Source: Escherichia coli (GTDB taxonomy: Bacteria > Pseudomonadota > Gammaproteobacteria > Enterobacterales > Enterobacteriaceae). Taken from it: 32,432 nucleotides of DNA. Shown piece by piece: positions 11,561 to 12,249 of this stretch (position 1 is the first letter of the stretch; every line of letters begins with the position of its first letter). A program made the translations under genes and the position numbers. Where the stretch lies: the NCBI RefSeq assembly GCF_003334255.1, contig NZ_QOWU01000058.1, one strand, 5' to 3'. The notes under the pieces are model-generated. The model made no database searches. It saw nothing but the letters and a program-made list of their open reading frames with translations, and was not told the DNA's origin.

Positions 11561-11929
11561 GTGTCAGACACACTTTCCGGGACAACGCATCCCGATGACA
11601 ATGACGACCATCCCTGGTGGGGACTACCCTGCACAGTGACGCCCTGTTTCGGCGCCCGTCTGGTGCAGGAGGGTAACCGGTTGCATTACCTTGCCGACCG
11701 TGCCGGTATCAGAGGCCGGTTCAGAGATGCGGATGCGTACCCTCTGGACCAGGCCTTTCCGCTGCTGATGAAACAACTGAAATTAATGCTCACCAGTGGT
11801 GAACTGAATCCCCGCCATCAGCATACCGTGACACTGTATGCGAAGGGGCTGACCTGTGAAGCCGACACCCTCGGCTCCTGTGGTTACGTTTATCTGGCTG
11901 TTTATCCGACACCTGAAACGAAAAAGTAA
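11561..11929 (+). CDS. cbeA: CbeA/YeeU-family antitoxin (type IV toxin-antitoxin, cytoskeleton-bundling-enhancing)
   Basis: GTG start at 11561 preceded by GTGAGGA. Product VSDTLSGTTHPDDNDDHPWWGLPCTVTPCFGARLVQEGNRLHYLADRAGIRG...TVTLYAKGLTCEADTLGSCGYVYLAVYPTPETKK closely matches the YeeU/CbeA family as I recall it. The 11453 start in the track is an upstream extension. Symbol denotes family; yfjZ and yafW are paralogs. Confidence 0.8.
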   Translation: MSDTLSGTTHPDDNDDHPWWGLPCTVTPCFGARLVQEGNRLHYLADRAGIRGRFRDADAYPLDQAFPLLMKQLKLMLTSGELNPRHQHTVTLYAKGLTCEADTLGSCGYVYLAVYPTPETKK

Positions 11930-12018
11930 ACCACCAGAATAACCTTCTGCTCCGGCCTGGTGTTTTCACCACGCCACTGTCCCATTTTTTATCTCTGCAT
12001 ATCAGGAAAATCTTCAGT

Positions 12019-12249
12019 ATGAAAACATTACCCGACACGCATGTACGGGAGGTATCGTGCTGCCCGTCTCCCGTCACCATCTGGCAGACACTGCTCACCC
12101 GGTTACTGGACCAGCATTCCCTGATTTCCTCATCGATATCGAATAAGCACTCGTCGCAGAATTCTTTATCGAGTGAGAGCCTCTGTTCAAGGACGCTTCT
12201 TTTTTTTGTTGCAACGTGCACATCCCTTCATCTTTCCGCGCCTTTGTGA
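12019..12249 (+). pseudogene. cbtA: Truncated CbtA/YeeV-family toxin gene (only ~36 N-terminal codons retain homology)
   Basis: N-terminus MKTLPDTHVREVSCCPSPVTIWQTLLTRLLDQH resembles the CbtA/YeeV N-terminus. After ~12126 the frame continues into unrelated low-complexity sequence (SLISSSISNKHSSQNSLSS...) and lacks the rest of the ~124-aa toxin. Confidence 0.65.

Follow-up and report, generated by a model that had tools for sequence, protein, structure and literature searches.

A complete gene for a type IV antitoxin of the CbeA (YeeU) family, followed by the first codons of its toxin partner cbtA, very probably marks the scar of one internal deletion in the mosaic tRNA-leuX island of Escherichia coli. 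Within the 32,432 nucleotides of DNA analyzed here (contig NZ_QOWU01000058.1; hereafter the window), illegitimate recombination at a 2-nt microhomology would have excised cbtA from codon 34 onward together with all that followed, up to 739 nt upstream of mtnK. Relative to strain ATCC 25922, in which the ancestral arrangement appears to survive, the deleted segment would amount to ~13.2 kb, including an ISEc52 copy specific to that strain. The window retains an untouched cbeA and a 33-codon toxin stub, presumably inactive, fused in frame to 43 unrelated codons.

An alignment of three sequences, namely the window, L006 (a locus with an intact toxin) and L003 (the region upstream of mtnK in ATCC 25922), located the breakpoint. 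Identity to the L006 toxin is 100% as far as position 12118, and the mtnK-side sequence matches from 12117 on, the overlap being the two nucleotides TT (12117–12118) common to both parents. A repeat search around this junction found no direct repeats, inverted repeats or IS ends. On a larger scale, window 1044–12116 aligns with positions 12778–23851 of the ATCC 25922 locus (L014; 98.0% identity) and window 12117–13028 with positions 37091–38001 (99.1%), and the 13,239 bp lying between these blocks (L014 23852–37090) are absent from the window.

ATCC 25922 thus carries, at the same tRNA-leuX island site and between the same flanks, an undeleted allele. It reads antirestriction gene, JAB/RadC, DUF987, cbeA encoding the same antitoxin protein (WP_001295723.1; 0 differences in 369 nt), an intact 125-aa CbtA toxin (WP_000854759.1), DUF5983, DUF957 and gene fragments. 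Next come a type IIS restriction–modification system of the Alw26I/Eco31I/Esp3I family (adenine methyltransferase, Dcm-type methyltransferase and endonuclease), McrC, and McrB interrupted by ISEc52, then a restriction-endonuclease fragment, an 84-aa glycosyltransferase-2 (GT2) fragment and mtnK-mtnA-ald2. In the window, by contrast, the intact toxin and the 13,239 bp are missing.

The junction is widespread. A 160-nt probe centered on it (coverage ≥ 80%) found it in 454 of the 5,426 complete E. coli genomes, the type strain ATCC 11775 among them, and a 1.5-kb probe in 403 genomes, while the right-hand, mtnK-side sequence is present in 1,083. Genomes with the right-hand sequence and without the junction include ATCC 25922, Nissle 1917 and ST131 strains; the three of these that were inspected have the undeleted side, ISEc52 being inserted in some. 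PGAP's annotation of every junction-bearing record inspected gives a YeeU family type IV antitoxin followed by a 99-nt CbtA family pseudogene (“incomplete, missing C-terminus”). The orphan cbeA and its truncated partner are therefore already in public annotation, and the locus is a case of ordinary toxin–antitoxin decay of low novelty.

The antitoxin gene and its retention

The cbeA gene (11561–11929, + strand) begins with GTG and comprises 122 codons before its stop. A GAGGA ribosome-binding (Shine–Dalgarno) motif can be read at 11549–11553 (+), 7 nt 5′ of the GTG. The product matches PF06154 (CbeA_antitoxin) from residue 18 to 117, covering model positions 1–100 of 101 (E = 4.5e-53). It is identical to K-12 CbeA at 110 of 122 residues, the two genes having the same length and both a GTG start, and it aligns without gaps with other members of the family. 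Among PDB entries it matches 2INW (E = 4.7e-75), 2H28 (E = 6.8e-74), the crystal structure of K-12 CbeA (YeeU), and YfjZ (2EA9 and 2JN7, ~1e-41). The full-length frame that the original prediction had described is thus borne out, and nothing in the sequence suggests that this cbeA is inactive. The open reading frame is also the same in each of the six junction-bearing sequences examined, two of which have disrupted neighboring sequence.

As in K-12 CP4-44 and at many other loci, cbeA lies directly 5′ of a CbtA-family toxin gene in a CP4-like island, except that the toxin gene here is a stub. The locus consequently does not hold an intact toxin and an intact antitoxin together, as a complete type IV module would: the toxin is a pseudogene, as PGAP also calls it, and the antitoxin is left at this site without a partner, as had been predicted. 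The CP4-44 system of K-12 (CbeA/CbtA, or YeeU/YeeV; a type IV pair of a cryptic prophage) shows a similar upstream string of Ag43, JAB/RadC, DUF987, antitoxin and toxin, a homologous toxin N-terminus, and DNA 86.6% identical over window 11537–12116. It differs in that the window toxin lacks codons 34–124, occupies the leuX island instead of the CP4-44 site, and follows a DUF8835 remnant placed between yeeT and cbeA. Compared with the orphan (solitary) antitoxins catalogued in E. coli population surveys, which likewise lack a functional adjacent toxin, the present one has an origin that can be reconstructed to the base and an undeleted relative that survives. It is a clean, base-resolved example of toxin-first decay leaving an orphan antitoxin, and it matters little.

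Scans for expression signals, which are weak evidence either way, predicted no + strand promoter for cbeA between 10500 and 12600 and no + strand terminator between cbeA and mtnK. Since no separate promoter is predicted, cbeA may still be co-transcribed with the genes upstream. An Rfam scan of 11000–13000 returned only a sub-threshold snoRNA match, attributable to chance, and nothing useful came from NCBIfam, PHROGs or PADLOC for the antitoxin, the 37-aa ORF upstream of cbeA, an intact toxin or the chimeric ORF described below.

The antitoxin of the window is, residue for residue, WP_001295723.1. Besides ATCC 25922, this protein is paired with intact toxins in strain 214-4 (at the CP4-44 site), in strain 2023CK-01509 and at a second locus of CFSAN061770, which implies, without showing it, that it has antitoxin activity. 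By likeness to K-12 CbeA, the cbeA product would act by protecting FtsZ and MreB polymers without binding the toxin. According to published descriptions, it is these polymers and not the toxin that CbeA acts on, and it also protects against other FtsZ inhibitors (PMC5624674); bundling of FtsZ and MreB by CbeA is earlier work, given here as Heller 2017 (PMC5624674) and Wen 2017 (PMC5371832) describe it. In two-plasmid assays, CbeA, YafW and YfjZ each neutralize CbtA, YkfI and YpjF (Wen et al. 2017, PMC5371832). The YfjZ/YpjF (CP4-57) and YafW/YkfI (CP4-6) pairs, whose antitoxins cross-neutralize each other's toxins, fall in the same Pfam families; their sequences are more distant, and K-12 has both partners of each pair intact. 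Action of the orphan CbeA in trans on paralogous toxins, the role raised in the original prediction, is on this analogy plausible, and the orphan could dampen the effect of CbtA-family toxins that other islands of its genome encode.

At least one genome has such a toxin together with the junction. The second locus of CFSAN061770, a junction-bearing strain, encodes the identical antitoxin beside an intact toxin, WP_000854765.1, whose first 33 residues are those of the stub. Of the first 30 genomes listed as carrying the junction, 27 contain two or more places resembling cbeA, and 3 show the junction locus alone at megablast sensitivity; for ATCC 11775, two places are listed for the junction query. 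With 276-nt probes in distant mode, antitoxin cores were found at 15,136 places in 4,992 genomes and toxin 3′ parts at 12,890 places in 4,940 genomes, a comparison that is rough, the two genes differing in divergence. These counts are consistent with toxin-first decay and with the reported abundance of orphan antitoxins in E. coli (73,201 occurrences in 950 genomes), for which a trans-acting role has been proposed (PMC10790755).

Taken together with the published cross-neutralization, the protection against several unrelated FtsZ inhibitors and the unchanged ORF in the six junction-bearing sequences, these observations would favor the idea that selection maintains the orphan cbeA for a protective (anti-addiction) role in trans, directed at toxins of the CbtA family, whether from other CP4-like islands or from incoming elements, or at other FtsZ inhibitors. 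We nevertheless consider this explanation unlikely. The paralogous toxins already have antitoxins of their own, and at megablast sensitivity a second cbeA-like locus was not found in 3 of the 30 listed genomes. Moreover, the conservation of cbeA, which we considered as a sign of selection, had to be rejected as such. Compared with ATCC 25922, cbeA shows 0 differences in 369 nt, DUF987 0 in 222 and the cbeA–cbtA spacer 0 in 89, so that flanking non-coding DNA is as identical as the gene itself; this equality points to a recently shared recombination tract, hence to recency and not to purifying selection. Window 10956–12071 shows a single difference from ATCC 25922 in 1,116 nt, against 1.5–2.9% in genes further left and four substitutions in the last 47 nt of the toxin stub, and this mosaic of identity suggests gene conversion or recombination between island copies.

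More specific, and less probable again, is a function as general guard of the cytoskeleton, in which the orphan cbeA would be maintained for the protection of FtsZ and MreB, immunizing the lineage against toxins of resident or incoming CP4-like islands. If true, it might also act against phage-encoded FtsZ inhibitors, and it would explain why cbeA persists in hundreds of genomes that lost two restriction systems to the same deletion. We favor instead passive survival: loss of the toxin first would be harmless, and the deletion would have happened to spare cbeA, with no demonstrated selection as the reason for its survival. The locus could serve as a natural test of the trans value of a type IV (target-protecting) antitoxin.

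Origin of the junction

The direction of the change can be read from what the junction interrupts. On its left side cbtA is cut mid-codon, and on its right side a small minus-strand ORF is cut too; the deleted state is therefore the derived one. ATCC 25922 should be taken as a model of the ancestor and not as the ancestor itself, because the toxin stub is of the L006/L007 allele type, with four differences from ATCC 25922, all within the last 47 nt of the stub.

The original prediction had also proposed that the locus might be the scar of the recombination that joined two island modules. This is not borne out: ATCC 25922 has both modules, in the same order and at the same site, with ~13 kb between them, and the scar is for this reason assigned to an internal deletion and not to a joining of modules. 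One could still suppose that the junction represents the original joining of the CP4-44-like module to the mtnK (DHAP-shunt) module, the 13 kb of ATCC 25922 being a later insertion, as the leuX island is indeed a mosaic of modules with IS fragments between them. This is very unlikely. In ATCC 25922 and others, collinearity continues past both sides of the breakpoint, with the full toxin, DUF5983 and DUF957 on the left and the GT2 fragment on the right; an insertion would have had to re-create exactly the 91 missing codons of cbtA, and the truncation of the minus-strand ORF on the right speaks against it as well.

That small ORF is intact in ATCC 25922 (L003 3946–4113, − strand), just upstream of the GT2 fragment, and encodes 55 aa with a CxxC…CxxC pattern (MKRCARCNKK…CDEC…). 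The deletion has removed the C-terminal end of its counterpart at window 12119–12221 (−), and a T-run of T8 versus T7 (~12134–12142) shifts its N-terminus in the window. Its only family match is a weak one in PHROGs (E = 0.004).

The same deletion took DUF5983, DUF957, the type IIS restriction–modification system and McrBC, so that all junction-bearing lineages lost two restriction systems in the same event. Loss of the type IIS system and McrBC from the leuX island in many lineages, including the type strain, may outweigh the antitoxin for the biology of these strains.

The toxin stub and the chimeric reading frame

Of cbtA, only codons 1–33 remain (12019–12117, +), a pseudogene by Pfam, BLASTP and alignment, which PGAP labels “incomplete; missing C-terminus”. 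The frame reads on through a tail of 43 codons plus stop (12118–12249, +), made of DNA from the mtnK upstream region and not derived from the toxin, to give a chimeric ORF of 76 aa (12019–12249). PF06755 (CbtA_toxin) matches its residues 1–34 to model positions 1–34 of 112 only, and an intact 124-aa toxin aligns by BLASTP with 33 of 33 identical residues and no match past residue 33. At the nucleotide level, homology to the toxin stops at 12118, that is, after codon 33 and the first base of codon 34; the last toxin codon is CAT (His), codon 34 is TCC against TAC, and the frame closes at TGA 12247–12249. The truncation seen in the original prediction, which had the toxin match run over the first ~36 residues before unrelated sequence, therefore stands, with the retained length corrected to 33 codons.

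The DNA of the 5′ piece is 100% identical to that of intact toxin genes in other genomes and PGAP independently made its call on the same 99 nt, for which reasons the resemblance is not due to chance. As a toxin the stub is almost certainly not functional, since 91 of 124 residues (34–124) are gone, including the position of F65, and the tail is translated from mtnK upstream DNA. In K-12 CbtA, F65 is required for FtsZ binding (Heller et al., PMC5624674) and the substitution R15C affects MreB binding (PMC5624674). No solved toxin structure came up when the PDB was searched with K-12 CbtA.

That the 76-aa ORF still works as a toxin in diverged form, or is a new small protein, can be dismissed almost entirely. 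In its favor, the frame is uninterrupted, the toxin's own start codon and the region 5′ of it are retained, and position 15 lies in the retained part. Against it, position 15 is a Cys as in the intact relatives of this allele, only 34 of 112 Pfam positions and no F65 are present, and PGAP calls the ORF a pseudogene. Residues 34–76 correspond to DNA found upstream of mtnK in 1,083 genomes whatever the state of the toxin, and NCBIfam, PHROGs and PADLOC gave no family match for the tail.

The island and the mtnK flank

In near-identical genomes, the island downstream of tRNA-leuX begins with an integrase, IS elements, nanXY, the fec operon and further IS fragments. It continues with a CP4-44-like module that has no integrase of its own (inovirus Gp2-like gene, HTH, GTPase, Ag43, DUF905, DUF932, antirestriction, JAB/RadC, DUF987, cbeA and the cbtA stub), and beyond the stub with mtnK-mtnA-aldolase, a GRP transporter, yjhU and yjh/sgc genes. 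The DUF905 gene downstream of Ag43 (~8677–8872, +) is annotated as frameshifted in all near-identical relatives, a further sign of decay in this module.

The last intact gene upstream of cbeA is a yeeT-like DUF987 gene (11177–11398, +), an ORF annotated as DUF987 in near-identical relatives and belonging to the antirestriction–JAB(RadC)–DUF987–cbeA string. Its stop codon overlaps (TGATG) a 37-codon remnant (11398–11511, +) that matches the C-terminus of the 214-aa DUF8835 protein WP_000086770.1. In other islands the full gene sits between yeeT and cbeA, and PGAP sometimes names it “antitoxin of toxin-antitoxin stability system”. Window 11353–11398 corresponds to positions 1–46 and window 11399–11574 to positions 597–772 (94.9%) of one such locus (L012), so that by alignment the remnant is the product of an older internal deletion of ~550 bp, which is also found in L001, L006, L007, L008 and L014.

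The type strain ATCC 11775 is 99.9–99.96% identical to the window over its whole length, except for an insertion of ISEc12 (IS21 family; 2,580 bp, L017 16893–19472) between DUF987 and cbeA. The element lies at window 11511–11516, with a target duplication of 6 bp, and is 45 nt from cbeA on the upstream side, leaving that ORF intact. It probably uncouples cbeA from the upstream genes, and transcription of cbeA may have been lost in this strain.

To the right of the junction, the retained upstream region (12119–12856), 99.1% identical to ATCC 25922, contains by homology the DHAP-shunt promoters P1 and P2. It leads to mtnK (12857–14116, +; an ORF annotated in relatives), first gene of the mtnK-mtnA-ald2 operon (12857–15913, +), which is followed by a GRP-family sugar transporter (16017–17021, +) and yjhU (17062–18048, −). 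We suspect that yjhU is the repressor gene called MtnR in work on the DHAP shunt. The mtnK-mtnA-aldolase (ald2) genes form the DHAP-shunt operon through which 5′-deoxynucleosides are used, described in ExPEC (PMC10986504, PMC12632272). P1 starts transcription 72 bp upstream of mtnK, P2 is placed ~188 bp upstream in the text and 218 bp in the figure legend, and a minimal ~250 bp upstream of mtnK is common to all shunt-bearing strains (PMC12632272). Promoter-like sites are predicted in the window at 12756–12800. As the deletion ends 739 nt upstream of the mtnK start, beyond the experimentally mapped promoters, it leaves regulation of the DHAP shunt intact. The deletion nonetheless puts the operon downstream of the cbeA gene string in the same orientation.

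Two further features of the window are worth recording. An ST131 isolate and AVS0456 carry ISEc52 at positions corresponding to window 12143–12146 and 12248–12250, where the overlaps are 4 and 3 bp; the distal region upstream of mtnK thus appears to be a hotspot for this element, of which ATCC 25922 has a copy in mcrB. At the right end of the window lies a second, unrelated toxin–antitoxin-type pair, topAI (YjhX-family toxin; ~31520–31777, −) beside yjhQ (30956–31501, −), with coordinates transferred from the type-strain annotation.
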